Assembly (NCBI GenBank): GCA_012512265.1
Contig: JAAZEM010000131.1
Span: forward strand, 1,837-65,836
Reading direction: 5' to 3'
Source of the DNA: Armatimonadota bacterium
Lineage (GTDB): Bacteria > Armatimonadota > JAAZEB01
Length of the DNA: 64,000 nucleotides
In this document: positions 42,515 to 63,194 of the stretch, piece after piece
How positions within the stretch are numbered: the first letter of the stretch is position 1
How the letters are laid out: each line of letters opens with the position of its first letter
The notes under the pieces: generated by a model
Seen by the model: only the letters and a program-made list of their open reading frames with translations
The model's database searches: none
What the model was told of the DNA's origin: nothing
Position numbers and translations under genes: made by a program

Positions 42515-42624
42515 GCAAAGACTCCATCCATGAAAAAAGCGGGGGCCCGGCTCTACCGGATTCGATATCGCCGCACCCCCGCGCACCTACAGCGCGATCA
42601 CTCGCGCCTTGAAGAAGGCGGTCG

Positions 42625-47449: not shown

Positions 47450-47714
47450 GCGTTCTTCTCGCGCATCGCCCGCCAGCCGCCCCGCGGTTGCCCGGAGGAT
47501 GGATGGAAGCCCCCAACCCGTCCCTCCCCGCGCTGTCAAAGCTTCTCTGACCGTGACGCCCGCGCGTATCACTGGTTGCGGAAGGAGTAGCGCCACTCGT
47601 CATAGAAGTTGAAATCACGAAGAGGTGTTCTCATGCCTTCATGGAGCTACCGCACGTGAAGACCCCTTGGGCCGCGCCAATCACTCAGCGCGATCGAGTT
47701 GGGGGAACGCCGGA

Positions 47715-48644
47715 GTGACACGACCTCTTCATCCTGGGGAGGCACCTATCGTTGCGGGGCTCACCCTGGCGTTGGGAGAGCCGGCACGGGCAGCGATGTA
47801 TCAGCCCCTGCTACGCCGCGCGGTCGCGGCGGAGTGGGAGATGGCCTTTGCCCGGCTGGCCGCGGGCGGCGCGGGGGCGGTCGCCGGCATCGTGTCTCGC
47901 GAAGGCGAGGGCGATCTCCAGGAGGGGATGTTCGCTCTCCCGCGCCTCGTACACCGGACCGGCATCGAGCCCTATCGTGCCCTCTTCCTCGCGGCGCTCC
48001 ACGACCGGATCCTCGATCGCCAGGAGCACGGCGTGTGCCTCTTCATCGACTGGGATACCGGTGGGCTTGGCGTCTACGCTGTTGACTTCGCCGATGGGAA
48101 CGCGCGCATCCTCACCTCCTCATTTCAACCGGCGATCTGCACGGTGGCGCTGGGAGAGGCGGTCGCCAGGCACGTGCTCCTGCCGGCAGCCATGCCAGGC
48201 GGGGCCAGCCTCTGGAACGATCTGGAGAGCGAGGAGAGAGCGCGTCTCCGCGGGGCAGGGGAGGGCCTGCTGCGGCGGTGCTGGCTTGGAAGTCGGGAGC
48301 GGTTCGTGTGCGCGATCCCGCCGGTGCCGAGGGGCCGGGCTCTCGCCCGCGGCGCGGTACTCTCGATCACGCGCGAGGCGCTCTTCGCGCAGTGTCGGCT
48401 GGCCCTTGCGACGGCGGTTGACGCGCTGAGTGGTGCGCTGGAGACGGTGATGAGCCGCTGCGACACGCCGCTCCGGGTGGTGGTGTCGGGCGAGGCGGCC
48501 CGCTGGCACGAGTTTCAGAGCGCCGTGCGCCGGACATGCGGCGATCTTCCGGTGCATCTGGCGCCAAGGCCGGAGTCTTTCGCGGCGCGAGGCGCCGCCC
48601 TGGCGGTGGCAGAGGAGCACCTTGGAACGAAGGGAACCGTGTGA
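47715..48644 (+). CDS. degenerate Hsp70/actin-fold protein (predicted pseudo-ATPase), first gene of the Hsp70/vWA/tubulin-like cluster
   Basis: Hsp70 NBD motifs are recognisable but eroded. Phosphate-1 GIDLGT is replaced by AGLTLALG, phosphate-2 DLGGGTFD by DWDTGGLGV, and adenosine motif GGSTRIP by VSGEAARWH. The C-terminus ESFAARGAALAV corresponds to 'deaVA.GAA'. The start is uncertain (GTG 47715 or GTG 47625). The stop overlaps the next ATG (ATGA). Confidence 0.6.
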   Translation: MTRPLHPGEAPIVAGLTLALGEPARAAMYQPLLRRAVAAEWEMAFARLAAGGAGAVAGIVSREGEGDLQEGMFALPRLVHRTGIEPYRALFLAALHDRILDRQEHGVCLFIDWDTGGLGVYAVDFADGNARILTSSFQPAICTVALGEAVARHVLLPAAMPGGASLWNDLESEERARLRGAGEGLLRRCWLGSRERFVCAIPPVPRGRALARGAVLSITREALFAQCRLALATAVDALSGALETVMSRCDTPLRVVVSGEAARWHEFQSAVRRTCGDLPVHLAPRPESFAARGAALAVAEEHLGTKGTV

Positions 48645-50761
48645 TGGCAAACGCCATTTCCGTGGGGATCGATCTGGGTACCAGCACGTGCGAGGTCGCC
48701 TATTGGGACTCCGTAGCCCGGCGGATACGCAACGTCTCCTTCGGCGGTGAAGGCGGGCCCATTGTGCCCTCCGCGGTGTGGTTTGATCGCGCGCGAGGGC
48801 GCACGGTGGTTGGTGACCAGGCCTACGCGATGCGCGTGCCCAAACACCGGGAGGTCGTGCTCAACATCAAGCGCCAGATGGGCACCGACTACCGGTTCGC
48901 GCTGGGTGGGCGGGAGTACACGCCTGCCGAGATCTCGGGCGAGATCCTCAGGTACCTGAAGGCGGAGGCGGAGCGCTTTACCGATGGCGAGGTGAAGCAG
49001 GCGGTGATCACCGTGCCGGCCAAGTTTGACACGCTGGCCCGCGAGCACACCGAGGAAGCGGCGCGGATCGCCGGCCTGGAGACGCTGATGCTCCTGCCGG
49101 AGCCCGTGGCCGCGCTTATCGGCTATGAGAGCGTGGCCCAGGATCCCGAGCGCGAGTATGTCGCCATGGTCTACGACTTCGGCGGCGGCACCTTCGACTG
49201 CAGTGTTGTCCATGCCAGGGGCAGGCAGTATCGCGTTCTCTCTAAGGCGGGGGTACACCGCCTGGGCGGCGCCCAGATTGACGAGCGGATCGCCGATCAG
49301 TTGATCCGCCCCAAGGTGTTGCATGCGGGCTTCGACCTGGCCAGCGAGGAGGAGTGGGCGCTCAAGATCCGCGCGAAGATCCTCGAGGTTGCGGAGGCCG
49401 CCAAGAAAAGCCTCTCCGATGAAAGCCGGCGCTCCGTGGTCGCCGTGCTCCCCCATCTCGTGGCGCCGGGGCGGCCTCCTCAGACCGTGCGCGTGGAGAT
49501 CACCCAGGAGGATCTGCAGAAGACCATCGCTGACCTGTTGCGTGTGGCCAACGAGCAGATGGCGCTCGCCCTGGAGAACGCGGGAATCTCTCGCGCCGAG
49601 CTCGATATGGTCGTCCTTGTCGGTGGCTCGACGCGCCTGCCCGCGATTCGAGAGGCTGTTCGCCAGTTCATGGGCGAGAAGGCGTTCGACGGCAGGGATG
49701 GCGGGGTTCGCAAGGTGCTCGCCGATGCCAATCCGGATCTCGTCGTCTCGCGCGGCGCCGCGCGCGTGGCCACCTCCTATGACCTGCGCGACGAGCGAAT
49801 TGAGCTGGTCGATATCCTCCTCGACACTGTCTACCTGCGCGTGCCGGGTTCCCTCACTCAATTCAGGCCGCTCTTCGCTCGGGGCACCGAGATCGAGCAG
49901 GCGAAGCGCACGCTTCGGCTGCAGTGGCCCCGAGGCGACACCGTCGCCGTCGATCTCTATGAGGGCGAGAAGGACGGCGCCCCGGGAGCGAAGTACGTGG
50001 GCACCCTCAAGTTGGGTCCGGCCTCTGTGCCCAAAGGGACTCCCGTTGAGCTCACCATCCAGTACCGCACCGACCGCGCGCTCCCAGAGGTGACGGCGCG
50101 GGTGAGGAAGACGGGCACCCCCATCCGGGCCACGGTGGAGTACGAGCAGCATAGCGTCCAGGCATCGGGATCGGCACGGCTGCAGGTGACCCCGGAGCTG
50201 GACCTCGTCTTCTGCATCGACACCACGGGGAGCATGGTGCATGGCGACCACCTCGAGAAGCTGCGCCACTGCTGCACCCGCTTCGTCAACGCCCTTGCCG
50301 AGAGTGATCTGGATCTCCGCCTGGCGGCGATCAGCTTTGGCGACCGCGCCGGCGGCGAGCGCGAGACGGTCTACTCCTTCACCCCGGACCCGCGCCTCTT
50401 CATCACGCGCGTTGGAAGCCTGAACGAGAACGACGGGGGAGACGAGCGGGAATCGGCGCTCGATGCACTGGCCGTGGCGCTCCGGCTTCCCTTCCGCGAG
50501 GGAGACACCCGGCATCACATCGTGCTCGTTACCGACGCGCCCCCGCACCGGCCGGAGAAGGGCTCGCTAGAGCAACTGGTCTCGCAACTGGCTGCCCACA
50601 ACATTCGAGTCGATGTGGTCGGGCCGTTCTGCCAGGAGTATGACACCGTGGTCGCTGGCACGGGAGGGCGGCTCTACAACATCGACGACGAGCTGGATCA
50701 GCTGTTTGCCGATCTCGAGGAGAGTATCGGGCACGCGAGCAGCGGCACGGAAGGGGCATGA
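48644..50761 (+). CDS. Hsp70-family ATPase (NBD plus beta-sandwich substrate-binding-like domain) fused to a C-terminal von Willebrand factor A domain
   Basis: Canonical motifs GIDLGTSTCEVA, ITVPAKFD, LLPEPVAALIGY, VYDFGGGTFDCSVV, and VVLVGGSTRLPAIREAV. An SBD-beta-like segment reads VDLYEGEK...GTPVELTIQYRTD. The vWA domain carries the MIDAS motif LVFCIDTTGSM (DTTGS at 50219-50233). Confidence 0.85.
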   Translation: MANAISVGIDLGTSTCEVAYWDSVARRIRNVSFGGEGGPIVPSAVWFDRARGRTVVGDQAYAMRVPKHREVVLNIKRQMGTDYRFALGGREYTPAEISGEILRYLKAEAERFTDGEVKQAVITVPAKFDTLAREHTEEAARIAGLETLMLLPEPVAALIGYESVAQDPEREYVAMVYDFGGGTFDCSVVHARGRQYRVLSKAGVHRLGGAQIDERIADQLIRPKVLHAGFDLASEEEWALKIRAKILEVAEAAKKSLSDESRRSVVAVLPHLVAPGRPPQTVRVEITQEDLQKTIADLLRVANEQMALALENAGISRAELDMVVLVGGSTRLPAIREAVRQFMGEKAFDGRDGGVRKVLADANPDLVVSRGAARVATSYDLRDERIELVDILLDTVYLRVPGSLTQFRPLFARGTEIEQAKRTLRLQWPRGDTVAVDLYEGEKDGAPGAKYVGTLKLGPASVPKGTPVELTIQYRTDRALPEVTARVRKTGTPIRATVEYEQHSVQASGSARLQVTPELDLVFCIDTTGSMVHGDHLEKLRHCCTRFVNALAESDLDLRLAAISFGDRAGGERETVYSFTPDPRLFITRVGSLNENDGGDERESALDALAVALRLPFREGDTRHHIVLVTDAPPHRPEKGSLEQLVSQLAAHNIRVDVVGPFCQEYDTVVAGTGGRLYNIDDELDQLFADLEESIGHASSGTEGA

Positions 50762-50766
50762 CACCA

Positions 50767-52298
50767 TGGCACGGATTGCTGAGAGGCCGCCAATCGTTAT
50801 CGGCGTGGACCTGGGGAATGCCTCCTGCCGGATGGCGCCCTGGCGCAACGTGAACAGCCACTCGCCAACGCCCGATACGATGGGCTTTCGCTCCTGCCCG
50901 GCGGTGGTGGCGCGCGACCATGAGGAGGGCGGGTGGCTTGCCGGCGCCAGCGCCCTGGAGATCGCCTATCGGGATGGGGTGGAGCTGTTTGACCACCTGA
51001 AGGACGGCATCCTCCAGGAGCGCGGGGCGAACGCGCGGAAGACGGCTGTCCAGCGCCTGCTCTCCAAGCTCAAGTTTGATCTCCAGGCGGAGTGCGCCGC
51101 GCGCGTCATTGACGCCGTGCTTTCCGTTCCCTACTCGTACACGCTGAAGCAGCGCCGGGCGCTCCGCAACGCCTGCTCGCTGGCGGGTCTCCCCGTGGCC
51201 GGGCTGATCAACGAGCCGGAGGCGGCTGTTCTGGGGTATCGGATTGACGAGCAGATTGAGGAAGGCAGCGAGCGGATTCTCGTCTTCGATGCCGGGGCCA
51301 CGCGGTGCACCGCGAGCGTGGTCCGGCTGAGCAAGCAGGGGGCCTACATCGATATCGAGCTCCTGAGCGAGGCGCACGCAGTTACAGAGGAGGGAGAGCC
51401 GGTCGGCGGCGACAGGATCGACGCCCGGCTGCTCGAGATGTTCGAGAGGGGCCGGCTGCAGATCCCGCCACTGCCTTCGCCAGAGGCCCAGGCGGCCGGG
51501 GATCAGATGGACCCGGTGGAGTACGAGCGCTGGCTGCGGCAACAGCTCCGGCGTGTCCTGCGCGAGGCCCGGCACCAGTTGAGCGGCGAGACCTCCTTCG
51601 AGTTTTCGGTGCCCTGGGCCGAGGAGAGCCTCGGCCGGCTGACACGCGACCATCTGGAGCGATGGGCCAGCTTCGATACCGAGATCACCGCGGCGATCCA
51701 GATGGCGGTGCAGGGCGCGCGCGACCGCGATGCCCCGAACGGCCTCCGGAATGACCAGATAGACCGCGTCCTGATCACCGGTGGGCTCAACCGCTCGCCT
51801 TTGATCCGCCGGCTCGTGGATCACTTCCCCCATGTGGAGCCGTGCGAGGATGGGTTCGAGGAGTACGCGGTCGCCTATGGCGCGGCGCGGTGCGCGGCGA
51901 TCCTCACGGGCCGGTGCGAGGGAGTGGTCTTCCGCCCGCGCGAGACGCCCGCGTTTGGGATCCGCACCGGGATCGACACCTTCGACAAGGTGATCCCGGA
52001 AAACGCGCCGCCAGGGTTCAAGGCGAAGAAGGTCTACACCCTGCCCAACCGCTACGCCGACCGCATGGTGCTGGAGGTGTGCCAGGGCTTCTCCCGACGG
52101 TTCCAAGACGAGCTGTCGCTGGGCGCGAAGGAGCTCCCCCTCCAGTTCCCCGAGGGCGCCGGCAAGGGCACCTACCTCGAGCGTGAGATCCACGTCGAGA
52201 TGGATCTCGCCGATACCAGGCTCCTGGTCACGGTGACCGACCGCACCAAGGGGATTTCCCAGCCGGTGCCCGATAGGCTGGAGCTCGAGGTGAGGTGA
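50767..52298 (+). CDS. divergent Hsp70-like protein (NBD plus SBD-beta-like) with partly degenerate nucleotide-binding motifs
   Basis: VIGVDLGNASCRMA (phosphate 1, T to N), LSVPYSYT, LINEPEAAVLGY, VFDAGATRCTASVV (degenerate phosphate 2), VLITGGLNRSPLI. It starts 5 nt after the previous stop and follows GGAAGGGG. Confidence 0.8.
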
Positions 52299-52310
52299 AG
52301 GAGGAAGCCC

Positions 52311-52889
52311 ATGGAAGGCCGTCCGAGAACGGTGGAAGAGGTCGACGAGAGGCAGAGGACGCTGCGGGAGGAGTTTCGCCGGCTCAACGATGCGCTTGAA
52401 AGCAAGTTTGGAGAAGCGATCACGAAGCGTCAGATCCTGGATGCCGCGCAGGCGTGCGAGGTGCTCCGACAGTTAGCTCGGGAACTGAAGGTGCTGAGCG
52501 ATGAGAGTGACAGGATGCGGGAACCCGAGGCGAGGCAGAGGGCGCTCGAGAGGTTCGTCAGCGGCCGCATGGATGACAAGGTGGGTGCCATCCAGAGCGA
52601 GGAGATTGGCAAGCTCAAGGATGATCTCAACGCGATACAAGCGGAACTGGCCAATCTGAGGGAGCAGCTAGAGACTGGGGTCAACCATGCGCTTCAGAAG
52701 ATAGCGGATGCGCAAGGGAAGGTAGATGTGACCGATGGTCTCCTGAAGGAGGCCATCAGGCAGCGGGACGATCTTTCCCAGAAAATCGAGCGCCTCGAGA
52801 GGATTGCCAGGGATCTGGATGCTTGCGAAAGGATGGCGGAGGTCGCTGGGGCTGAGCCAGCCGGCGGCCAGTGGGGGGATCACGGGTAA
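52311..52889 (+). CDS. coiled-coil protein (hypothetical)
   Basis: AAGGAGGAAG RBS. The 192-aa sequence is rich in E/R/L/K/Q with a heptad-like character. I see no globular motif. Confidence 0.6.
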   Translation: MEGRPRTVEEVDERQRTLREEFRRLNDALESKFGEAITKRQILDAAQACEVLRQLARELKVLSDESDRMREPEARQRALERFVSGRMDDKVGAIQSEEIGKLKDDLNAIQAELANLREQLETGVNHALQKIADAQGKVDVTDGLLKEAIRQRDDLSQKIERLERIARDLDACERMAEVAGAEPAGGQWGDHG

Positions 52890-52953
52890 CCGCCCCGGAT
52901 GTGTGGCGCGGTTTGCTATCCCGGAACGCCAGGGAGAGAGGCTGGGCTCGAAG

Positions 52954-54495
52954 ATGAAGAACGACTGGGGCCGGGCGGACTGGAGTCGGGTATTCTATGT
53001 ATCGCTGGTGTTCGCGATCGTGCTTGTCCCTGCCGCGTTGATCCATGTTCTCTACCGCCACTGGGGAGTCCCTGCCGCGTTGATCCCGACGGTCTGGGAA
53101 GCCCCGTGGTTCGAGCACTTGGTGGTAGTCTTTGCGTTTATGTCAGTGGTCGTTGCCTGGATCAGCTCTCGGAAGGCCAGGGAGTCGCCGTTGAAACCTG
53201 AGCCCGCTCTGGAGTCGAGCCCGCGGGTAGAGCCCTGGCGGGCGGAGAGCCTGCAGGAAGAGTGGAATGGCTGGGAGCGAAAGCTCGACACCTACCGCTG
53301 GATCCTGGACGGGGATCTGCCCGCGCTGGATCCGGGAGAATTGAGCCAGGCGCAGGCTGCATTCAACAGCTTGCGGGAGGGGATCGAGCGCTTGCAGGAC
53401 CCGGGCGATTCCGAGCGGCCTCGTGCCAACGTCCCGGACCGCACCTGGGTCCGGAATAGCCTCGAGACGGGCATCAGTGCGATACTCGACCGGGAAGAGG
53501 AGAGGCAGCGCCTTCGCGCTCTCGTTGAGAAGACGGTGACGGAGTTCCGGGAGCAGGTGGAAACCCTGCGGGAAGAGGTGCGCGTGCTTCAGCGAGAGGC
53601 GGGCGTGCCGGCGGAAGAGGCAGAAGGCCCGGGCGAGTCTGACAGCGGGGCGGGCCACCTTGCCAGCTTGCAGGAGAAGATAGGAGAGCTCCAGCGGCGT
53701 GTTGAGGCGCTGGCGGGTGAGTCCGCCGATGAGACTTCGGGCGCAGGAGCAGACGTGCTCCAGACCATCGACGGCCGGCTGTCGCGGATTACCGATGCCC
53801 TGGAAGCGAGGGCGTACGAGATTTCAATCCGCGATTTTCACCGCCGGCACGAGGAGTTCACTAACCTTCGCCGCCGGCTTGCCGGGGAGGTGCTGCCGCT
53901 CCTGGAAACCGCTCCTGGGGACGAGGCGGCGCGGCATTGCCACCGCGCGCTCTCGGAGCTGCTGGAGCGCCTGGATGGCCGTCTGGCGGCTGCGAAAGAG
54001 GCGGTCCGCCACCGGGGCGAAACCCCGGGTGGAGGCGGAGAGCTGGAGCGGCGCATCGAGCGGCTGGAGACGCGCGCGCACCGGCTGAAGGATGGTGGTG
54101 ACGCCTGTCTGATGGAGCTGGCCGAGCCGCTGGTGCAGGAGCACCTGCGTCCCTTAGTCGAGATGATCATCCGCGATTTTCTCCGGCCGCTGCTGGAGGA
54201 GGCGACACCGGTGGAAGGAGAGACCGCCAGGAGTGCCCGCGCCACGTTGCTGGGCGAAGTGGTAACGCTCGCGCGTAGAGTCCTGTTGGAGAGCATCCAG
54301 TTGGAGGTGATCGACCCAAAGGCAGGCAGCAAGCTGGAGGAGGAGGCGCACGACGAGATAGAGGTACTCGCCCCGGAGGGAGACGCGAGCCCGAACACGG
54401 TGGCGGAGGTGGTCGCGCCGGGCTACCGCTGGGCGGGAGAGGTGATCCAAAGGGCGCGCGTGTGCTCCTATCGGGAGAGAATGGACAGGGCCTGA
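52954..54495 (+). CDS. membrane-anchored long coiled-coil protein with a GrpE-like C-terminal beta-domain
   Basis: Two N-terminal TM helices (VFYVSLVFAIVLVPAALIHVLY and LVVVFAFMSVVVAWISS), then about 350 aa of coiled coil. The C-terminus LEVIDPKAGSKLEEEAHDEIEV...NTVAEVVAPGYRWAGEVIQRARVCSY parallels the GrpE C-terminus (cf. E. coli VEVI...PLDPNVHQAIAMV...[23 protein letters not shown]). The start is uncertain (an ATG at 52804 is also in frame). Confidence 0.65.
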   Translation: MKNDWGRADWSRVFYVSLVFAIVLVPAALIHVLYRHWGVPAALIPTVWEAPWFEHLVVVFAFMSVVVAWISSRKARESPLKPEPALESSPRVEPWRAESLQEEWNGWERKLDTYRWILDGDLPALDPGELSQAQAAFNSLREGIERLQDPGDSERPRANVPDRTWVRNSLETGISAILDREEERQRLRALVEKTVTEFREQVETLREEVRVLQREAGVPAEEAEGPGESDSGAGHLASLQEKIGELQRRVEALAGESADETSGAGADVLQTIDGRLSRITDALEARAYEISIRDFHRRHEEFTNLRRRLAGEVLPLLETAPGDEAARHCHRALSELLERLDGRLAAAKEAVRHRGETPGGGGELERRIERLETRAHRLKDGGDACLMELAEPLVQEHLRPLVEMIIRDFLRPLLEEATPVEGETARSARATLLGEVVTLARRVLLESIQLEVIDPKAGSKLEEEAHDEIEVLAPEGDASPNTVAEVVAPGYRWAGEVIQRARVCSYRERMDRA

Positions 54496-55623
54496 ATGGC
54501 GGGCAACCGGAGCGCGCTTCTCTCGGAATCAGAGCTCCGCGAGCTGCGCGCGCTGCTCTATGCGACCCGGTCGAAGAGCATCGACACCTTGCAGCGGCAG
54601 GTGAGCCAGATCGGGATCCGCCTGGCGGATCTCCTCGTCAAGGTGGCTGCCGGGCTCGAGGCCGGCCTTCAGGAGACGCGCGGGCACCTGAAGGTGGCGG
54701 TCGAGACGATGATGGAGCAGGCGGAGGAGCTGGAGCAGATCAAGGCGTGGATCGAGGCGGCCTGCCTGACACCGGCCTCCCTCGCCAGCTCCCCCCGAGG
54801 TGGAAAAGACGCTGCCGAGGTCGCCCGCGTGGCGGAGAAGCTCTCCGAGACGGAGACGCGCCTGGCCGCCCTCGAAAGCGAGGTGGCGGATGTGAGCCAC
54901 CAGCTGCGGACCGCGGGCGAGCGTGTCGAGACGCCCGACCGGCCTGCGGGGGACGAGGCGCTGTTGGAGCGCCTGGAGGAGCACATCTCTCTTCTCGCCC
55001 TGGCGGGGGCTCGCCGGGTGGCGCGCGACCGCCAGGCGCGCATCCGGGCGCTCGAGCGTGTGGCCGAAGCGGTCGAGCAGCGGTTCATCCCGCGCGCCGT
55101 GGCCTTCCGCCGGCAGCTGAGCGGCGATGTGACGAGCTATGACGGCTGCCGGGCTCTGGAAGAGCGGGCGCGCGAGGCACGCCGCCTGGGAGAGGTGGCG
55201 GCGACGGAAGCCATGCGGTTGAGCGCCGCGCCCGACTCGGGGTCGGAGCGATGGGAGAGCGTTCGCGAGCTCCTGGCGCTGGGCGGAGTGCCCGATGGCG
55301 AGGACGACCTCGATTTTGAGATCCGGCGCGTGCTTAGCGAGTGGTTCCTCCCGCTCATCGATCTCACCGTCTCCTATCGGGAGACGGGGGCTCCAGAGGG
55401 AGAGGCTGCCTTCCAGGCGCTCCTTGGCGATCTGATGGAGGCGGGCTGGCGGGCGGACCTCGAAGCCATCGTGCCTGCACAGGGGGCGGCGTTCGATCCA
55501 GCGCTCCATGAGGCGGTGGGTTCAACCCCCGCTCGAGACGCGCGCGTGGCGCAGGTTGAGGCGCCTGGTTACTGCTGCGGCGGCGGAATCATGCGCCTGG
55601 CCAGAGTGCGTGTGCGCGAGTGA
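54496..55623 (+). CDS. coiled-coil protein with a GrpE-like C-terminal beta-domain (putative nucleotide-exchange factor)
   Basis: The ATG abuts the preceding TGA. A long helical region ends in LEAIVPAQGAAFDPALHEAVGSTPARDARVAQVEAPGYCCGGGIMRLARVRV, matching the GrpE pattern 'G..FDP..HeAv......V..v...GY...g.i.R.A.V.V'. Confidence 0.7.
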   Translation: MAGNRSALLSESELRELRALLYATRSKSIDTLQRQVSQIGIRLADLLVKVAAGLEAGLQETRGHLKVAVETMMEQAEELEQIKAWIEAACLTPASLASSPRGGKDAAEVARVAEKLSETETRLAALESEVADVSHQLRTAGERVETPDRPAGDEALLERLEEHISLLALAGARRVARDRQARIRALERVAEAVEQRFIPRAVAFRRQLSGDVTSYDGCRALEERAREARRLGEVAATEAMRLSAAPDSGSERWESVRELLALGGVPDGEDDLDFEIRRVLSEWFLPLIDLTVSYRETGAPEGEAAFQALLGDLMEAGWRADLEAIVPAQGAAFDPALHEAVGSTPARDARVAQVEAPGYCCGGGIMRLARVRVRE

Positions 55624-55644
55624 CAGGATGTGATGGGAGAAGTG

Positions 55645-57639
55645 ATGGCGGATAGTCGTTCGGCGAGCGTGGTGGAGGAGTTCCTGCCAGCGCCCTATCC
55701 GGCGCCTCTCTTCGTGGCGTGGGAGCAGCACCTCGATTTCGGGGAAGTTCGCCGGCCAGCGAGGAAGCGGTTGACATTCAAGGTCTCCAACATCGGCGGG
55801 GATGGTAACCTGGATGTGACGCTCCGACCGAACATCCCGGACCAGCAGTGGTTCCAGGTTCGCCCGACTCATCTCGTGATTCCGGCGGGCGAGGATCGCA
55901 TCGTTGACGTGGAGATCGATACGAGCCTGGAATCGTGCCCCCTCGGCCGGCACGACCTCGACATCCAGGTAGAGGCGCCCGGATCGATGGAGCCGGAGAT
56001 CCCGCGCATTCGGGTGTCGGTGGAGGTGCTCCGGGAGATTGTGCTGGTGTGCGACCCGGGCGAGATCGACCTGGGCGAAGTGCCCCTGGGCGAGAGCCGC
56101 ACCGTGACGGTGAGCATCCAGCGCAGTGATGAACGCGAGGTTTGCCTGAACGAGCGCCTGATCCAGCTGGTGGATGAAACCGGCAAGCCCCGGCCGGCGT
56201 GGGCCGACATTGAATTGGGAGCGCCGGGCCGGAAGCAGGAAGTCACGCTCACCTTCCACACGGCCAACCGGGCGATGCGCGAGTACCGCTGTGAACTGCG
56301 CCTGTGTGATACCGTCCCTGAGGTGAACCAGGTGGCGGTGCCCATCCACGTTTCCGTCAGCCCGCCGCCGCAGCTGGAGGTAGAGTGGGCGATCCCGCCG
56401 ATGCCGAACTTCACCGGCGACACCCAGGACGCGCAGCTCGCGGTGGGCAACTCCGGGGGCGGCGTCCTCCGCGGCCGAATCGCTGGCGACCAGTACTGGT
56501 TGCGTGTCCTGAATGGCGAGTTCAGCGTGGCGGCCGGCCAGATGCACACGGCGACGGTCCGAATCGGTGACGCCCGGTTGCGGGTTGGCACGTATCACGG
56601 TCATCTTGAAATCTTCTCGAATGACGGCGGGCGTAGCCGCGTGCTGCGCGTGCCAATCGAGCTGGAGGTGGTGGACCGGAGCCGCTGCCCCGTGGAGATC
56701 TACTTCGAGCCGGATCTGGGCGCGCTTCACCGCCGCCAGACGGCGGAGCGCGCGCTCACGATCACTAACCTGATGGCCCAGCCGTTTGAGGGGAGACTGA
56801 TCTCCGGGAGCCCCGACTGGATCCGGGTGAAGGGGGGCATGGAGGAGGTGCGCCTTGGCCCGGGCGAGTCCAGGCAACTCCTCCTGGAGGTCGACCCGCG
56901 GCGCCTCCCCGCGAAGGACGGCCCCACCAGGCACAAGGCGGCGTTGCAGCTGGTCGATTCCACGGGCAAGGAACGCTGGAAAAAGACCGCGACTTTGGAG
57001 CTCGTGCCCGCACCGTCCTCGCCGCTCGTGCGGTTGCTTCTGGCCTTCTGGGCGTTGGTGCTCCTCGCGGGCCTGGCATGGGGCGGAAAGCAGGTGTATG
57101 ACGGCCCGGTGCAAAGGATCCTCTCCGCGCGCACCCGGGCCGCGACGGTGGCCACGCCGGCGCCCGCACCGGCGGCACCGCCGGCTCAGCAGCAGGCGGC
57201 CACGGCCAGACCGGCCCCGGCTCAGCCGGCTCCTGAGTCGCAGAGCGCGCCTGAGGCCACGGAGAAACCACGCAGGGTAGCGCCGGATTCGGCCCGGGCG
57301 CGCTCTCTCTACGCGGAGGGGACCGCGCACTTCCAGCGGGGAGAGTGGCGCCTGGCTGCCGACCTCTTTGACCAGGCTGCGGCGGTGGATCCCGCGCCCG
57401 CTGGGTCGCTTTTGATGGTGGGCCGCAGCCGCTACCACCTCGGCGAGTGGGATGCCGCGGCGAAGGCGCTGGAGGAGGCGACGCGGCTCAAGCCCGATTC
57501 GGCGGCGGCCCACTTGTGGCTGGGCCGGGTCTATCTGGAGCAGGGCAACCGGGAAGCGGCCTCGCGTGAGTTTGAGGCCGCGCTGAAGGCAGATCCGATG
57601 AATAGGCAGGCACGCGATGAGCTTCAGAAGCTTCGGTAA
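55645..57639 (+). CDS. membrane protein with 4-5 N-terminal Ig-like (ASH/PapD-like) repeats, one TM helix, a Pro/Ala-rich linker and C-terminal TPR repeats
   Basis: Repeats take the form LDFGEV...LTFKVSNIGGDG.L, IDLGEVPLGESRTVTVSI, LAVGNSGGGVLRG and so on. The TM helix is LVRLLLAFWALVLLAGLAW, and the TPR region reads ARSLYAEGTAHFQRGEWRLAADLFDQAAAVDP...LGRVYLEQGNREAASREFEAALKADP. ATG 55645 follows GGGAG, with in-frame alternatives at 55630 and 55633. Confidence 0.7.
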   Translation: MADSRSASVVEEFLPAPYPAPLFVAWEQHLDFGEVRRPARKRLTFKVSNIGGDGNLDVTLRPNIPDQQWFQVRPTHLVIPAGEDRIVDVEIDTSLESCPLGRHDLDIQVEAPGSMEPEIPRIRVSVEVLREIVLVCDPGEIDLGEVPLGESRTVTVSIQRSDEREVCLNERLIQLVDETGKPRPAWADIELGAPGRKQEVTLTFHTANRAMREYRCELRLCDTVPEVNQVAVPIHVSVSPPPQLEVEWAIPPMPNFTGDTQDAQLAVGNSGGGVLRGRIAGDQYWLRVLNGEFSVAAGQMHTATVRIGDARLRVGTYHGHLEIFSNDGGRSRVLRVPIELEVVDRSRCPVEIYFEPDLGALHRRQTAERALTITNLMAQPFEGRLISGSPDWIRVKGGMEEVRLGPGESRQLLLEVDPRRLPAKDGPTRHKAALQLVDSTGKERWKKTATLELVPAPSSPLVRLLLAFWALVLLAGLAWGGKQVYDGPVQRILSARTRAATVATPAPAPAAPPAQQQAATARPAPAQPAPESQSAPEATEKPRRVAPDSARARSLYAEGTAHFQRGEWRLAADLFDQAAAVDPAPAGSLLMVGRSRYHLGEWDAAAKALEEATRLKPDSAAAHLWLGRVYLEQGNREAASREFEAALKADPMNRQARDELQKLR

Positions 57640-58882
57640 CCGTGGGTGGAGGCGGCTCCTTCTTGCCACGCTTGTTGGCGCGGCCAGCCTGGGCGCGTGC
57701 CCGAGGGTTTGGGCAGAGGCAGGCGAGGGCGTCGAGACTGTGCAGGAGCAGGCGGGGCAGATCGCGCAGAAGATCGCGCCGTACAAGGGGAAGTTTGTCG
57801 TCTTCGTCCTGGACGTCTCTGGGAGCATGACGAACCAGGGGCGGCTGCAGGCGAGCAACGAGGCGCTGGCCACGATCGTGCGCAATGGCACGCGGGTGGG
57901 CGACCGCGTCGCGATCTTCTCCTTCGACGTCAGCCCGGAGCTGCTGCTTAAGGAGACGGTCATCCAGAAGGAGAGCGACAAGAAGATCGTGATCGACCGG
58001 ATCCCGACGGTGAGCAGCAACACGGTGGGCTCGAACATCCGGTGGGCGCACCACGAGGCGCTCAAGCTGCTGGAGCCGTCGGAGTGTCCTTACCAGGTGT
58101 GCGTCCTGGTGAGCGACAACCTGCACGACCCGCCGGGTGAAACGGACCGCTTCTATCCGGATTACCTGAACTACTACATTCCCGGCACGATGGAGGCGCC
58201 CTCCACCCCGCAGAGTAACGACTACGCTCGCCTGCGCGAGAAGTTTCGCGGCGGCACCCGGCTCACCTTCGGGATTGGCGTCAACATCTCCGAGACGGGC
58301 GCCGTGCAGGAGCTGCCGCCACTGAAGAAGACTCCGGCCTGGGTGTGGCTGGTGGCCGCGGCGGCGGTTGTCGCGCTGGCTGGCGCCGGCTGGGTGGGAG
58401 CAAGCGCGTGGCGACGCGCCGCAGAGGCACGCCAGATCGCCAACAGTCCGATGAACGTTGTGATTCGCAACGTCACCCCGGATGGCACGGCCAGCCCCTT
58501 CAGCGCGGAGACGCATCTGGTGCTGCAGCCGAACGAGTCGTTCACCATCGGAGGCGCGCCTTTCGGTATCGGGCAGGTGGTTTCCCTCCCCGGCGCCATG
58601 ATGAAGGAACCGGTGGCGCGAGTCCACCGGCGCGGCCTTAGCTTCAGCCTCGAGGCGCTGCCCGGCCAGGAGACGGTGGCGGTTTACGTGGACGGCATCG
58701 AGGCCGTGCCTGGCGGAGATGCGATCCCTATCCGCTTGGGGCAGACGATCAGCGTGCGCTATCGGGTGATGGCTGGGATCGAGAAGAGCGTGGATCTTCT
58801 CTTCGCAGACCCGCGGGCGGCCGAAGAGCAGGCGGCAACCGAGGAAGTAGTCTTCGACGAGAGTCACCAGTCTCCCTATTGA
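57617..58882 (+). CDS. lipoprotein-like vWA domain protein with a TM helix and a C-terminal FHA-like domain
   Basis: Signal peptide with a possible lipobox (LGAC). vWA MIDAS FVVFVLDVSGSM (DVSGS at 57812-57826). TM helix AWVWLVAAAAVVALAGAGWVGA. The C-terminal segment FTIGGAPFG...VARVHRRGLSFSLE...VYVDG..V.....IRLGQTISV is FHA-like (tentative). It overlaps the previous gene by 23 nt. Confidence 0.75.
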   Translation: MSFRSFGNRGWRRLLLATLVGAASLGACPRVWAEAGEGVETVQEQAGQIAQKIAPYKGKFVVFVLDVSGSMTNQGRLQASNEALATIVRNGTRVGDRVAIFSFDVSPELLLKETVIQKESDKKIVIDRIPTVSSNTVGSNIRWAHHEALKLLEPSECPYQVCVLVSDNLHDPPGETDRFYPDYLNYYIPGTMEAPSTPQSNDYARLREKFRGGTRLTFGIGVNISETGAVQELPPLKKTPAWVWLVAAAAVVALAGAGWVGASAWRRAAEARQIANSPMNVVIRNVTPDGTASPFSAETHLVLQPNESFTIGGAPFGIGQVVSLPGAMMKEPVARVHRRGLSFSLEALPGQETVAVYVDGIEAVPGGDAIPIRLGQTISVRYRVMAGIEKSVDLLFADPRAAEEQAATEEVVFDESHQSPY

Positions 58883-58913
58883 GGGGGAGCGGCATAGCAG
58901 GGGGGAGCAGACG

Positions 58914-61900
58914 ATGGCCGTGGAGTTGGATGCCGTAGGCGTATCCCGAAGCATCATCATTGGCTGCGGGGGCACCGGACACAGGATCATCCTGGAGACG
59001 CGCAAGCGCCTGGTGGACAAGTACGGGTCGCTGAGCAAGATCCCGATAGTGCAGTTCCTACAGCTCGATACGACACCACTCAAGGAGGAAGTGCGCTACG
59101 CGAAGGAGGTCAACCTGACCCCCAACGAGTACGTCTTCATGCAGGTGCAGAACATCGCCAAGTACCGGCGTGGCCTTGAGAATGAGCCCCACCTCTACCC
59201 GCATCTGGCGTCCTGGGTGCCGCGCTCGATCCTCACGACGAACGTCGACCAGGGCGCGGGCCAGGTGCGTGCGCGGGGGCGCTTCGCCTTCTTTGAAAAC
59301 TACCCTACGATCCGCGAGCGCCTCTACGCGGCGATGAACCGCGTCACCAGCGACCAGGCGTATCGCGAGGCCACGTCGAACGGCATCCGGGTAAGCGAAG
59401 GCGGGATCTCGGTCTACATCCTCACCTCGCTGATGGGGGGCACGGGGAGCGGCATCTTCCTGGACCTGGCCTACCTGGCCAAGAATGAGTTGAGCCAGGC
59501 CGCGGGCGCGAAGACGATCGACACGATTGGCATCCTGTTGCTGCCCCCGGTGGGCGGCGACCTGGTGGGCGTCTACTTTGCGAACGCCTATGCCTCGCTG
59601 ATGGAGCTCAACCACTTCAACAACCCCGCCACCGAGTTCGTGGCCCAATACCAGCCGGGCATGCCCGAGTTGCGCGATCCGGACGACCCCTTCACCTTCT
59701 GCTACCTGATGGACTCGCGCAACGAAGAGGGAGACGTGATCGGAGAGGACAAGCTGATCCAGATGATCGGCCACTACCTCTTCCTCGATCTCACGCACGA
59801 GTTCGCGAGCAAGAAGCGCGAGAACCGCGACAACCACAAGCAGTGGCTGCGCCGCGATGAGTTCGACTGCCCCACCAAGTACCTTAGCTTCGGCCTCTCG
59901 GCGCTCTGCTTCCCCAAGGACCAGGTGCTTCACGTCTGCGCCAATCGGCTGGCAAAGGAGCTCGTCTCGGGGTGGATGGATCCCGCGGCCGTCTTCGATG
60001 ATCGCGAGCTTCACGAGGAGGCCATCAACCGCATGGCCCAGGCCAACTGGGACTGCGATCGCGTGCGGGCCGGACTGGCGGTAGAGGGCCAGAGCCAGCA
60101 TGGGAGGAGCGCGACCGATGCCGTAGGCGAGATGGTGCGCCGCGCTGAAGCCACCGCCAAACAGGCGATGAACGAGAGCGCGATTCGCGCCCTGGAGAGG
60201 CTGATCCAGCAGGATCTCCCCCCCTGGATCTCCGCCGGCGACGAGGCCAATCCGGACGTGCGCCAGCGCAGGGGGCTGGGCATCTACCCGGAAGAGATCC
60301 GCAAGGGGCTTGAACGGCGCATCGAGCACATGAGCGCGTGGCTGGTGGAGCTGGTGACGGAGCTGGTGAACGACCCGAAGTACCGCCACGAAGGCTGCCG
60401 CCGCATGCTGGCCTGCCTGGAGCGGATTGCGACCCAATCTCGCGACCGGTTGATCCGCGACAGCACCGAGCTGAAGGCGCGGATGGACGCGCTGAATGGT
60501 CAGATCCAGAAGATGCTGAGCCAGTCGCGTGGCGAGATCCGGAAGGCGATGGAATCCGCCGCCAACGGCAGCCGGCGAAAAGCCGGCCGCGGCGCGACCA
60601 CCAATCGCGGCACGGCCGAGGCGGCGATCTCCAGCTTCTGCCGGGCAGTGGCTCAGCACGCGCAGGACAGCGTGCAGGCGTTCGTCTGCGACGCCGCCCA
60701 CCGCTTCTACACCGAGATGCTCGCCTGCCTGGCCGAGCGTAATCGCGATCTGAGGCGCTACGAGGAGCATGTGGGCGGGCTGCGCGAGCGCTTCCGTGCC
60801 GAGGAGATGCGCTTCCTGGAATCCTCCCCGGCCGTCAACGGTGAGATCCTCTACACCGGCGGAGATGAGGACGCGGATGAAGCGATCAACCGCTATTACC
60901 AGCATGTGACCGCGACAGAGAGACGCCAGATAGACGACCGCGTCCAGGCGGAGCTGGGCATCACCTCCATGGGCCTCTACGGCTACTTCCTGGCCGAGGG
61001 CGCCGGCTCTATCGACACGATTGCAGGAACTATCCTGCGGCACACGACGGCGGCGTTCAAAGACGACATTGAGGCGGTCGAAGTGCTCAATCTCTTCTTC
61101 GAAAGGTACCCGGACGACCGCGCCGCCGAGGAGCAGATGAAGCGCCTCAACCGCCTCTGCTCGCCATTCGTCCACGCGAAAGCGGGCGGGATGGCCGGCT
61201 TCACCGACGACCCGCAGATGCGCCAGCGCAACATCGGCATCCCCAACGCCGAGGAGCCGAAGACATCGGCGGAGCGGCGCTTCCGGGCGATGGTCACCAA
61301 AGCCGCGTCGGTGACCGACCCGCGCACCTGGGTGACGGTGGCCTCGCGCAGTGAGGCGCTCTTCCTCCATGAGCGTTCCGGCTTTCCCCTGCGGCTCATG
61401 GAGGACGCGTTGCGTCGGTGCGAAAGCCACTACGAACACACGCGCAAGCGCCGGAAAGAGCCAGTGCACGCCCGCGTGGATTTCCAACAGTGGGAGAGTC
61501 TCACGCCGGCGCCGCCACACCTGAAGGCGGAAGCGTGGAAGATCTTCTTCATCGCGGCGGCTTCCGGCGTGCTCACGTGCCGGCCGGTGGAGGTGCAGAC
61601 CCAGCGCGGCCAGGAGGAGCGCTTCAGCTACGAGATCAGCTATTTCGATGACCAGGGCGTGCAGCATACCGAGGTGGTGGCCGACCGCCTCCCGCCCTTC
61701 GATGCCCTCCGCTTCGATGGGAGAGACTATCCGAATGGCGTGATGCAGCTCCTCCTGAAGCTGTGTCACCCCGAGGGATTGACCGATCTGGCCCGGCGCA
61801 TCCAGCGCAAGCAGGAGGAGACTGTGGCCAAAGAAGGGGTGGCGGCGATCCGGGAGCGCCTCCTCGATCTCGTCAACAACCGGCTGTCGCCTCAAGCCGA

Positions 61901-62345
61901 GTTCACGCCGCACGCGCGCGAGGTGGTGAGTGGCTACCTCCGCTCGCTTCAGAGCGCGCCAGGAGCGGGCGCGCCCGCGACTCCCCCGGCGCCGGCACCC
62001 GCGGGCGCTACAGGCGACCGGCTCGCGAAACTGCGCGGCCTCCTCGAGAAGCGCCTGATGACCGCTTCGGACTACGCCGCGAAGCTGAAGGAGATGCGCG
62101 GCGAGGGCGTGCTCACATCGGATGAGTGCCGGGCGAGCCTGAATGAACTCCGCGACGCCGGTCTCCTGACGCCGGCGGAGTACGACGCAGCTTGCCAGGC
62201 GCTCGGCCTCGAAACGGCGGAGAGCCCGGCGGAAGAGAACTCGATTGAGGCCCGCCTGATGAAGCTGAAGAGCCTCTTCGAGAAGGGATTGATCACCCAG
62301 GAGGATTACGACGCGAAGCGAACCGCGATTCTGGCGGAAATTTGA
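58914..62345 (+). CDS. giant tubulin/FtsZ-like GTPase (Tubulin_2-type) with a long helical region and C-terminal SHOCT-like repeats
   Basis: N-terminal T1-like IIIGCGGTGHRI. Tubulin signature LTSLMGGTGSGIFLDLAYL (MGGTGSG at 59433-59453). GAGQVRARGRFAFF. Three C-terminal repeats of the SHOCT type at about 62010-62342 (LAKLRGLLEKRLMTASDYAAKL, LNELRDAGLLTPAEYDAA, LMKLKSLFEKGLITQEDYDAKRTAIL). GGGGGGAG RBS. Confidence 0.8.
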   Translation: MAVELDAVGVSRSIIIGCGGTGHRIILETRKRLVDKYGSLSKIPIVQFLQLDTTPLKEEVRYAKEVNLTPNEYVFMQVQNIAKYRRGLENEPHLYPHLASWVPRSILTTNVDQGAGQVRARGRFAFFENYPTIRERLYAAMNRVTSDQAYREATSNGIRVSEGGISVYILTSLMGGTGSGIFLDLAYLAKNELSQAAGAKTIDTIGILLLPPVGGDLVGVYFANAYASLMELNHFNNPATEFVAQYQPGMPELRDPDDPFTFCYLMDSRNEEGDVIGEDKLIQMIGHYLFLDLTHEFASKKRENRDNHKQWLRRDEFDCPTKYLSFGLSALCFPKDQVLHVCANRLAKELVSGWMDPAAVFDDRELHEEAINRMAQANWDCDRVRAGLAVEGQSQHGRSATDAVGEMVRRAEATAKQAMNESAIRALERLIQQDLPPWISAGDEANPDVRQRRGLGIYPEEIRKGLERRIEHMSAWLVELVTELVNDPKYRHEGCRRMLACLERIATQSRDRLIRDSTELKARMDALNGQIQKMLSQSRGEIRKAMESAANGSRRKAGRGATTNRGTAEAAISSFCRAVAQHAQDSVQAFVCDAAHRFYTEMLACLAERNRDLRRYEEHVGGLRERFRAEEMRFLESSPAVNGEILYTGGDEDADEAINRYYQHVTATERRQIDDRVQAELGITSMGLYGYFLAEGAGSIDTIAGTILRHTTAAFKDDIEAVEVLNLFFERYPDDRAAEEQMKRLNRLCSPFVHAKAGGMAGFTDDPQMRQRNIGIPNAEEPKTSAERRFRAMVTKAASVTDPRTWVTVASRSEALFLHERSGFPLRLMEDALRRCESHYEHTRKRRKEPVHARVDFQQWESLTPAPPHLKAEAWKIFFIAAASGVLTCRPVEVQTQRGQEERFSYEISYFDDQGVQHTEVVADRLPPFDALRFDGRDYPNGVMQLLLKLCHPEGLTDLARRIQRKQEETVAKEGVAAIRERLLDLVNNRLSPQAEFTPHAREVVSGYLRSLQSAPGAGAPATPPAPAPAGATGDRLAKLRGLLEKRLMTASDYAAKLKEMRGEGVLTSDECRASLNELRDAGLLTPAEYDAACQALGLETAESPAEENSIEARLMKLKSLFEKGLITQEDYDAKRTAILAEI

Positions 62346-62387
62346 GACCGTGCCACGTTTGGTTGCTGGTGAGTGGAGGCCGGTGCA

Positions 62388-63194
62388 GTGAGTGAGTCGG
62401 ACCGGCTGAGGCGGCTTCGCAAGCTGCGGGAGGCGCTCGATGCGCCGCTCGTGCCGCGCGGCATGTCGCGCGCCTCGGTCGCTCACTATCCGACCGTGCC
62501 GCCCCGGTACACCTATCCGGGTCCGGTGGTACCGGGCACGCGCGCGGAGCTCGCCGCGGCGCCGAAGGGCTCGCGCCCGCTCCGGTGGCTCGCGGCCGCG
62601 CTCTCGCCACTCGCCGCTCTGGAGCGGTGGCACCTGCAGGCAGCCACGGTCGCGCTGGCGATCCTAGGCGCGCTGAACGCCTACTGGTTTCAGTGGGGCC
62701 TGGAAAAGGCGGCGATCACCATCATCGCCACGGCGGCGCTGCCGGCGCTACTCAGCGGCCTCTGCGACCTCCTTTTCCGGCTTACCGTCATTCCGGGGAT
62801 TCGCCTGCACGTGGCGCTGCTTCAGTGGGCGCGCGAGCGCCATCGCGCGCTCGTGATTGTGAGAGCCTGGGCCGACACCCCTCTCCGGGGGCGCTGGAAA
62901 CGGGCGGTGCAGGTTCAGTTCGCCTCGGGGGCGATCCCGGCGCGGACGCTCGACGTGGTGACGGACCTCTACGACGACAACTCGAAGCTGGATATCGCCC
63001 TCCTGGTGGAGGCGCCGGCACTCCCTTTGGACGACCTCCTTGTCTGGGTGCGCGTGCCGGATGGCCGGCTGGCTGGGATGGAGGCGAGCATCCGCCGGTT
63101 TCGAGAGGAGCGGTGCGCGCGCTGCCTGGGCGAGGAGACAGACTGCGCCCTCTGCGGCGGCACCTACCGGGTGCCAGAGGCGCAATTCCTGTGA
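62388..63194 (+). CDS. membrane protein with a C-terminal CxxC...CxxC zinc-ribbon (hypothetical), last gene of the cluster
   Basis: GTG 62388 lies 8 nt after GGAGG (alternative GTG at 62373). TM helices ATVALAILGALNAYWF and ITIIATAALPALLSGLCDLLF. The C-terminus reads RCARCLGEETDCALCGGTYRVP. Confidence 0.55.
   Translation: MSESDRLRRLRKLREALDAPLVPRGMSRASVAHYPTVPPRYTYPGPVVPGTRAELAAAPKGSRPLRWLAAALSPLAALERWHLQAATVALAILGALNAYWFQWGLEKAAITIIATAALPALLSGLCDLLFRLTVIPGIRLHVALLQWARERHRALVIVRAWADTPLRGRWKRAVQVQFASGAIPARTLDVVTDLYDDNSKLDIALLVEAPALPLDDLLVWVRVPDGRLAGMEASIRRFREERCARCLGEETDCALCGGTYRVPEAQFL

Follow-up and report, generated by a model that had tools for sequence, protein, structure and literature searches.

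The FtsZl1 (FtsZ-like 1) family, defined by Makarova and Koonin in 2010 and represented in Pfam by Tubulin_2 (PF13809), consists of proteins of about 1000 residues in which an N-terminal FtsZ-like head is followed by an extended coiled coil and then by a C-terminal domain that is mostly helical, with no recognizable T6-H7 or C-terminal FtsZ domain (PMC2875224). A vWA gene usually lies in the same operon, often together with membrane-associated partners, and FtsZl1 normally coexists with canonical FtsZ. A role in membrane remodeling was proposed for the family, and Makarova and Koonin allowed for the possibility that FtsZl1 proteins do not assemble into filaments (PMC2875224). A phylogeny published in 2023 took Tubulin_2 proteins as a divergent outgroup (PMC9871819). 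Here, we examine a 64,000-nucleotide stretch of DNA from an Armatimonadota bacterium (contig JAAZEM010000131.1; hereafter, the window), in which an 1143-residue protein with a tubulin-like head is encoded by the ninth gene of a ten-gene operon. This protein is almost certainly a member of FtsZl1. The best overall explanation of the locus, and one that we consider probable on balance, is that an FtsZl1 member in a chaperone-linked operon forms a membrane-associated, nucleotide-gated assembly.

Similar gene sets are known from a second group of systems. In the DO-GTPase/GAP1 systems, tubulin+vWA and HSP70+GrpE(+TPR/DnaJ) sets form non-overlapping accessory themes (Kaur et al. 2020, PMC7159879). 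Our operon resembles the GAP1-N2 systems in combining a tubulin-like protein that has a coiled coil, a vWA protein predicted to be membrane anchored and extracellular, HSP70 with GrpE, a second HSP70-type protein, and a beta-sandwich-plus-TPR protein. However, it differs from them in holding both accessory themes in one operon and in having no P-loop GTPase or GAP1 that we could find, and Armatimonadota are not among the phyla listed in PMC7159879. Compared with the FtsZl1 operons, it adds an Hsp70-vWA fusion, a second Hsp70, and two GrpE-like genes, and it is without the diverged P-loop GTPase, kinase, and OmpA genes that are listed as frequent partners. The operon is best described as a rare FtsZl1/vWA variant that has recruited private Hsp70/GrpE-like machinery, without the P-loop GTPase of other variants.

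An FtsZl1 protein and its tubulin-like head

The tubulin-like gene (Table 1) is an intact open reading frame with no internal stop codons, and a Shine-Dalgarno-like, purine-rich GGGGGAG lies about 7 nucleotides 5' of its start. Four independent contigs call the same 1143-residue protein at 99% identity, and we found full-length homologues at 91%, 63%, and about 30% identity. Given these copies and homologues, a frameshift or a chance open reading frame is excluded, and the preliminary description, which was made from the letters of the window and had raised a genuine frameshift as a possible objection, was right to treat the frame as intact. An antisense open frame of 1191 residues (59058..62633, minus strand) runs over the gene; it has no support as a gene and is the usual artefact of 65% G+C. 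A scan for promoters and terminators was uninformative.

We found that the Tubulin_2 model matched residues 14-351 with 247.5 bits (cut-off, 27; E=3e-73), which spans positions 1-355 of the model's 356. The classical tubulin model PF00091, in contrast, stayed below its threshold, with 14.2 bits against a cut-off of 33 (E=0.055) and a match around T4 only. Pfam placed no FtsZ_C or Tubulin_C domain in the protein, in agreement with the preliminary description, and searches of the protein against NCBIfam and PADLOC gave no meaningful match. The 99% identical protein of an Armatimonadota metagenome-assembled genome carries the NCBI name [quoted passage not shown]

The family to which the protein belongs is large. 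At E<=1e-3, an exhaustive phmmer search with residues 1-360 returned 4,691 cluster representatives, of which 2,248 also passed E<=1e-10; at 50% identity, this amounts to about 4,700 family clusters. Most of the representatives are 900-1400 residues long. A scan of species-representative genomes with a 27-sequence alignment identified more than 550 Tubulin_2 loci, the best 80 of which came from Armatimonadota, Vulcanimicrobiota, Cyanobacteria, and Acidobacteriota. At least 30 of 66 Tubulin_2 loci had a vWA gene on the same strand within 7 kb upstream, which confirms the known vWA linkage. At the ends of Tubulin_2 proteins, the fused domain may be a kinase, PP2C, zinc ribbon, GYF, or SHOCT domain, and the SHOCT tail is found in only part of the family (approximately 20 of 108 protein-search hits).

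The large size, the coiled coil, the helical C-terminal region, the missing FtsZ_C/Tubulin_C domain, and the vWA neighbor are all typical of FtsZl1, as are the GGTGSG head, the family-specific C-terminal region, a length within about 1000-1150 residues, a vWA gene adjoining on the upstream side, membrane-associated partners, and the presence of the invariant family residues. The preliminary description had set the protein apart as far larger than FtsZ, TubZ, or BtubA/B. This is true of its 1143 residues, but the size is not odd for a family whose layout was described in 2010 (PMC2875224) and whose members mostly have 900-1400 residues in our search. Rather than being of a new kind, the protein is thus an ordinary FtsZl1 member, already annotated as tubulin-like.

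To place the head structurally, we used AlphaFold2 models built from 87-103 homologues. The model of residues 1-360 had a pLDDT of 89.6 and a pTM of 0.89, and the full-length model had a pLDDT of 88.4 and a pTM of 0.73. With either model, all 50 of the best Foldseek matches in the PDB were CetZ, FtsZ, tubulins, BtubA, or Asgard tubulin (for example, 3zid, 4b45, 8gzv, 1ofu, and 7quq), with a probability of 1.0, E-values of 1e-6 to 3e-4, TM-scores of 0.37-0.50, and 12-17% identity. The T1-T5 loops could be aligned with those of these proteins. In agreement, hhalign aligned the profile with E. coli FtsZ at E=9e-6 from T1 to T5, where the alignment ends. It paired GCGGTG with GVGGGG at S1-T1, LDT with NTD at S2, GAGQVR with GAGANP at T3, and MGGTGSG with MGGGTGTG at S4-T4, and it also paired the S5-T5 segments. 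A profile of 87 homologues run against PDB sequences returned coiled-coil noise only, with FtsZ at E=0.8, and no family member with a solved structure was detectable by sequence in the PDB.

These results support a divergent tubulin/FtsZ-superfamily GTPase domain at the N-terminus, as the preliminary description had proposed from two glycine motifs, and both motifs hold up. The T1-like glycine loop, IIIGCGGTGHRI, occupies residues 14-25 (nucleotides 58953-58988), and the tubulin signature core GGTGSG occupies residues 175-180 (nucleotides 59436-59453) within LTSLMGGTGSGIFLDLA (nucleotides 59421-59471). The Pfam, Foldseek, and hhalign results refute the idea that these motifs mark an unrelated Rossmann or P-loop fold, to which we give a negligible chance of being correct.

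Around the two glycine motifs, the head displays T1 (G17-x-G19-G-T-G22), D52-T53, T3 (G114-A-G116, R119, and R123), T4 (G175-G-T-G-S-G180), P211, N224/Y226/E231, and the sequence FLDLTHEF at residues 290-297. Across 87 homologues, G17, G19, G22, D52, T53, G114, A115, R119, R123, S172, G175-G180, D184, P211, N224, Y226, and E231 are invariant or nearly so, and T4 is fully invariant. The conserved residues from G17 to E231 line the nucleotide pocket, and the head appears, from its motifs and its model, to carry a complete set of phosphate- and ribose-binding loops.

Behind S6 (residues 262-266), the predicted order of elements is H7 (278-294), a two-residue break, H8 (297-311), S7 (323-332), and H9 (335-355), which mirrors the S6-H7-T7-H8-S7-H9 order of FtsZ and is kept in CetZ and tubulin as well. 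In contrast to those proteins, H7 is shorter, the T7 position is the two-residue helix break, and about 790 further residues follow. After H9, the chain departs from the tubulin topology in the AlphaFold2 models and continues into helices, and it has no S8-S10. At the predicted H7/H8 junction, the 39 closest homologues share D292, T294, E296, F297, R305, and N307 without exception, whereas distant ones vary at these positions. By the order of secondary structure elements and by conservation, rather than by superposition of coordinates, we infer that FLDLTHEF stands at the position of the tubulins' catalytic T7 loop. The motif resembles the NVDLTEF of alpha-tubulin. The strand at 323-332 is fully formed in the full-length model only and not in the model of residues 1-360, a difference which hints that distal segments may complete a second subdomain.

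The preliminary description held that the approximately 800 residues after the GTPase domain are mostly helical. This fits residues 356-636, where AlphaFold2 placed helical bundles (356-456) and helices at 457-486, 491-551, and 554-636, the last two of which pair into the antiparallel coiled-coil hairpin, but it does not fit the alpha/beta region at 637-1014. Residues 356-636 gave only coiled-coil-type matches, such as apolipoprotein, among PDB sequences, and residues 637-1014 gave no Pfam or PDB sequence match. Conserved positions in the alpha/beta region include P751, G775, E820, F824, L826, Y840, P850, and H852. Conservation peaks in the head, which is 79% identical to the 63% orthologue and 46% identical to the 30%-identity homologues; residues 637-860 rank second (66% and 27%), and the coiled coil is the least conserved region, with 19-20% identity to the 30%-identity homologues. 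Overall, the structured regions behind the head are 51-66% identical to the 63% orthologue.

The protein ends in three SHOCT repeats, as the preliminary description had suggested. The repeats are 27-31 residues long, any two of them are identical at 7-13 of 27 positions, and AlphaFold2 predicted a helix pair in each (1032-1045/1051-1063, 1069-1081/1087-1096, and 1111-1123/1129-1141). Pfam SHOCT (PF09851) matched with 43.8 bits against a cut-off of 27 (E=1.8e-11), and two stretches pass alone, the best being 1114-1140. The units thus share with known SHOCT domains the C-terminal position and the bihelical form of about 28 residues (PMC3581485), whereas the arrangement as three tandem copies behind a Pro/Ala linker departs from the usual one. 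A later comparative study predicts that SHOCT domains anchor at the inner leaflet of the membrane (PMC11237479).

The Hsp70/GrpE-like operon

The ten genes of the operon are co-directional and tightly spaced, from 47625 to 63194 on the plus strand (Table 1). Boundaries of the Hsp70 genes were taken from the gene calls in L087, the locus of the 99% lineage; we also compared L003, the locus of the 63% orthologue, and L090, a locus found via a 54% homologue of the Hsp70-vWA fusion.

Table 1. Positions in the window of the tubulin-like gene, the regions of its product, and the other operon genes
Feature	Position	Strand	Basis or remark
Tubulin-like gene (operon gene 9), 1143 residues	58914..62345	+	ATG start; stop codon included
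Tubulin/FtsZ-fold nucleotide-binding domain, residues ~8-355	58935..59978	+	PF13809, AlphaFold2, Foldseek, hhalign
Helical bundle and long antiparallel coiled-coil hairpin, residues 356-636	59979..60821	+	AlphaFold2 secondary structure
Alpha/beta region, residues 637-1014	60822..61955	+	AlphaFold2 strands 770-776, 814-824, 887-926, with helices
Pro/Ala-rich flexible linker SAPGAGAPATPPAPAPAGATG, residues 1015-1031	61956..62006	+	pLDDT <50 at 1018-1030
Three SHOCT repeats, each helix-turn-helix	62016..62342	+	Residues 1035-1061, 1071-1097, 1113-1143
Operon gene 1, ~310-339 residues	47625..48644	+	Counterparts at same position in L087 and L003
Operon gene 2, Hsp70-vWA fusion, 705 residues	48644-50761	+	PF00012 E=1e-65, and vWA families
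Operon gene 3, second divergent Hsp70, 510 residues	~50766-52298	+	PF00012 E=2e-35
Operon gene 4, coiled-coil protein, 192 residues	52311..52889	+	Weak coiled-coil-type matches only
Operon genes 5 and 6, GrpE-like (region 52804..55623)	~52954-54495, 54496-55623	+	PF01025
Operon gene 7, Ig-like (ASH/HYDIN) and TPR protein	55630..57639	+	Pfam; hydrophobic segment 461-487
Operon gene 8, membrane vWA protein, 421 residues	57617..58882	+	PF13519; ends 31 nucleotides 5' of the tubulin-like gene
Operon gene 10, ~268-273 residues	62373..63194	+	Hydrophobic segment 112-143; homologue at same position in L003

Judged by their sequences, the genes appear to encode two or three Hsp70-type ATPases and two GrpE-like exchange factors. 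The Hsp70-vWA fusion has a nucleotide-binding domain with intact phosphate motifs (DLGT and DFGGGT) and the beta part of the substrate-binding domain, and a vWA domain with a MIDAS-like DTTGS stands where the helical lid would be. In a database of 5.8 billion proteins, only three clusters matched the fusion at 54% identity or more, and the next matches were ordinary DnaK at 33-35%. In the second Hsp70, the phosphate-2 motif is degenerate (FDAGATR versus DLGGGTFD), and only two close clusters precede ordinary DnaK in the protein database. The product of the first gene, which has no Pfam match, aligned co-linearly with lobe II of the Hsp70 nucleotide-binding domain in pairwise BLASTP (E=7e-4) and carries the phosphate-2-like IDWDTGGLG and the adenosine-motif-like VVVSGEAAR; it may be a degenerate third protein of the Hsp70/actin fold.

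The two GrpE-like proteins scored 27.9 and 31.4 bits (cut-off, 25.8) over model positions 104-165 only, and each consists of a long coiled coil followed by just the C-terminal beta domain of GrpE. The first of them has two hydrophobic segments and may be a membrane-anchored exchange factor. Gene 4 has a counterpart of 160-173 residues at the same position in L003 and L090, and the Ig/TPR protein is likewise represented at both loci. The vWA protein of 421 residues has a signal-peptide-like N-terminus, an intact MIDAS motif (DVSGS), one transmembrane segment (239-264), and a cytoplasmic tail of about 155 residues that is beta-rich and matches no family. It is predicted to span the membrane with its MIDAS vWA domain facing outward, and its tail could be where the tubulin-like protein docks. 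Gene 10 has no Pfam match. None of the 10 operon proteins contains a Walker A motif ([AG]xxxxGK[ST]), and none matches a P-loop GTPase family in Pfam.

Synteny of the operon extends to lineages at 99%, 63%, and about 54% identity. The gene order beside the 63% orthologue is nearly the same, and the 54% locus keeps the core order, with one 524-residue gene in place of the two GrpE-like genes and two extra genes without assignment (516 and 103 residues) ahead of Tubulin_2. The Hsp70-carrying 10-gene operon is rare, being found in only these three related lineages. When the Hsp70-vWA fusion and the second Hsp70 were used as protein queries, neither linked the operon to other systems, and a metagenome scan with the fusion returned near-identical copies only. 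We also considered a general linkage of Hsp70 with Tubulin_2 and rejected it: among 86 loci, Hsp70 was found only at L003 and at L073, a cyanobacterial locus whose canonical dnaK-dnaJ pair is parted from the tubulin gene by a Uma2 gene, so that its presence there is probably coincidental. The preliminary description had noted an operon context unlike that of cell-division or plasmid-segregation loci; the Hsp70/GrpE-like part is indeed unusual, whereas the vWA neighbor is the hallmark partner of the family.

More distant Armatimonadota carry different operons. At L001, L002, and L005, which hold 30%-identity homologues, we found a Ser/Thr kinase or a PQQ beta-propeller protein, a vWA protein, several other genes, and a gene of about 640 residues downstream of Tubulin_2, and no Hsp70. 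These differences indicate that accessory sets are swapped around a constant pair of vWA and Tubulin_2.

The flanks of the operon hold housekeeping genes (ClpC, RadA, an aminotransferase, an oxidoreductase, GH123, and hyp genes), and we saw no mobile-element or defense genes near it. A GH123 glycoside hydrolase gene lies 3' of the operon in both the 99% and 63% lineages (L087, 14623-17022; L003, 14477-16015), and with this shared neighbor the operon seems to sit at a conserved place in the chromosome rather than on a mobile island. The minus strand carries radA (41114-42586) and a clpC-type AAA+ chaperone gene (42625-45096) directly upstream of the operon. Elsewhere in the window, an AT-skew spike of 0.21 at 28-30 kb coincides with a gene for a DsbD-like thiol:disulfide interchange membrane protein (28582-30408, minus strand).

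A proposed membrane-associated assembly and its alternatives

How might the tubulin-like protein and its neighbors act? In the mechanism that we tentatively propose, the protein would form a GTP-regulated, self-assembling scaffold under the membrane that is remodeled by the Hsp70s; we regard this mechanism as quite possible, short of probable. The head would bind GTP and self-associate via the invariant acidic motif at H7/H8, the stalk and the C-terminal region would bind partners, and the linker and SHOCT tail would hold the assembly near the membrane complex, while the dedicated Hsp70/GrpE-like machinery would assemble, remodel, or dismantle the scaffold. The outcome would be a membrane-associated, nucleotide-gated assembly that serves either envelope remodeling or the assembly step of a conflict (immune-like) system.

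A bolder proposal, which we consider unlikely as it stands, is that the operon encodes a self-contained, chaperone-driven tubulin-like machine in which the tubulin+vWA and HSP70+GrpE modules cooperate without a P-loop GTPase. The lid-less Hsp70-vWA and the two GrpE-like factors, anchored by membrane segments or coiled coils, would then load or dismantle FtsZl1 polymers at the membrane. Such Hsp70 action would resemble the uncoating of clathrin by Hsc70.

Several observations weigh against the scaffold mechanism. The canonical activation domain (S7-H9-S8-H10-S9-S10) is reduced to S7-H9 in the contiguous sequence, the TM-scores to FtsZ and CetZ are modest (0.37-0.45), and the hhalign alignment with FtsZ ends at T5; given these three results, head-to-tail polymerization is not established. 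Position 54 is T in our protein and D in 71 of 87 homologues, and the T7-like acidic residues of the D292/E296 motif vary in distant family members. The SHOCT tail also lends less than the preliminary description had supposed, since its helices were not more amphipathic than shuffled versions in a hydrophobic-moment test, and since the paper that defined SHOCT (Eberhardt et al. 2013), which proposed a role in oligomerization, tested this and found no support for it (PMC3581485). The evidence that Hsp70 acts on the tubulin-like protein is gene linkage confined to three related lineages, and our literature search found no biochemical, structural, or genetic work on any FtsZl1/Tubulin_2 member.

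An alternative, which we judge possible if somewhat unlikely, concerns the biological role of the operon and is compatible with the assembly of a scaffold. Kaur, Burroughs, Iyer and Aravind (2020) predicted systems of biological conflict that act against phage or in programmed death, and the operon could be of this kind. An invader, or damage to the envelope, would be sensed by the extracytoplasmic vWA and Ig/TPR parts, and the tubulin-like protein and the Hsp70s would form a threshold-setting multimer that blocks the invader or kills the cell. The tubulin+vWA and HSP70+GrpE(+TPR) sets are variable parts of GAP1-N2 systems (PMC7159879), and our operon holds both. Moreover, the accessory genes beside Tubulin_2 differ among related Armatimonadota (kinase/PQQ with vWA versus Hsp70), and the domains fused to the ends of Tubulin_2 are variable too. 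However, we found neither part of the DO-GTPase and GAP1 core that defines these systems: no operon protein has a Walker A motif, and none matched a GAP1 family in a Pfam copy whose content of GAP1 models was unverified, three of the proteins being unassigned. Against PADLOC-DB v2, the operon proteins gave only weak coiled-coil matches (JetC and ZorA, E of about 1e-3 to 1e-4) and no meaningful one. The housekeeping neighborhood and the shared GH123 gene described above also speak against this role.

Viral sequences offered it little more. A scan of viral contigs identified one locus only, L093 (IMGVR_UViG_3300031452_000003), which carries a full-length relative at 30% identity. Its gene order, compared as the order of open reading frames only, is like that of kinase/vWA-type Armatimonadota loci such as L001, and the contig, a borderline "viral" one, is probably prophage flagged or a misclassified bacterial contig.

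A second alternative concerns the head itself, which could be a non-polymerizing GTP-binding switch, an adaptor that regulates the stalk and the C-terminal domain in the manner of a signaling GTPase. The missing FtsZ_C/Tubulin_C domain, the helices that follow S7-H9 instead of S8-S10, the modest TM-scores, and T54 in place of the usual Asp would all suit such a switch, and Makarova and Koonin had left room for an FtsZl1 that forms no filaments (PMC2875224). Nevertheless, the motif at the T7 position keeps its two acidic residues invariant across the 39 closest homologues, and conservation extends over the whole 350-residue head, which stands at 79% against 51-66% behind it. The strand at 323-332, complete only in the full-length model, likewise hints that distal segments finish the second subdomain. 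We consider a switch improbable.

It is highly improbable that the protein is a substitute for FtsZ in cell division or a DNA-segregation motor like TubZ or PhuZ: it shares the superfamily fold with all of these, and with TubZ/PhuZ also the standing of a divergent prokaryotic tubulin with non-canonical C-terminal extensions, but PF00091 falls below threshold, FtsZ_C and the C-terminal activation domain of canonical FtsZ and tubulin are lacking, the neighbors are chaperone-like, vWA, and TPR genes with no division-cluster genes and no TubR, centromere, plasmid, or phage context, the architecture differs, the viral structure library yielded weak matches with no significant or close structural relative, and FtsZl1 normally occurs beside canonical FtsZ (PMC2875224).

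FtsZl1/Tubulin_2 is a large branch of the tubulin superfamily. The protein described here adds little by itself to what is known of the family's role or of polymerization without a canonical C-terminal domain, and the unusual part is the operon with its Hsp70-vWA and GrpE-like genes. The operon points to specific partners, namely the membrane vWA protein, the Hsp70-vWA fusion, and the dedicated GrpE-like factors, and the AlphaFold model and the invariant D292/E296 motif offer concrete targets for mutation. In this operon, moreover, the "tubulin" and "HSP70" sets known from predicted conflict systems are seen to occur together without the GTPase core. If the chaperone-driven machine proves to be real, it would open a first way into the function of this family of about 4,700 clusters.

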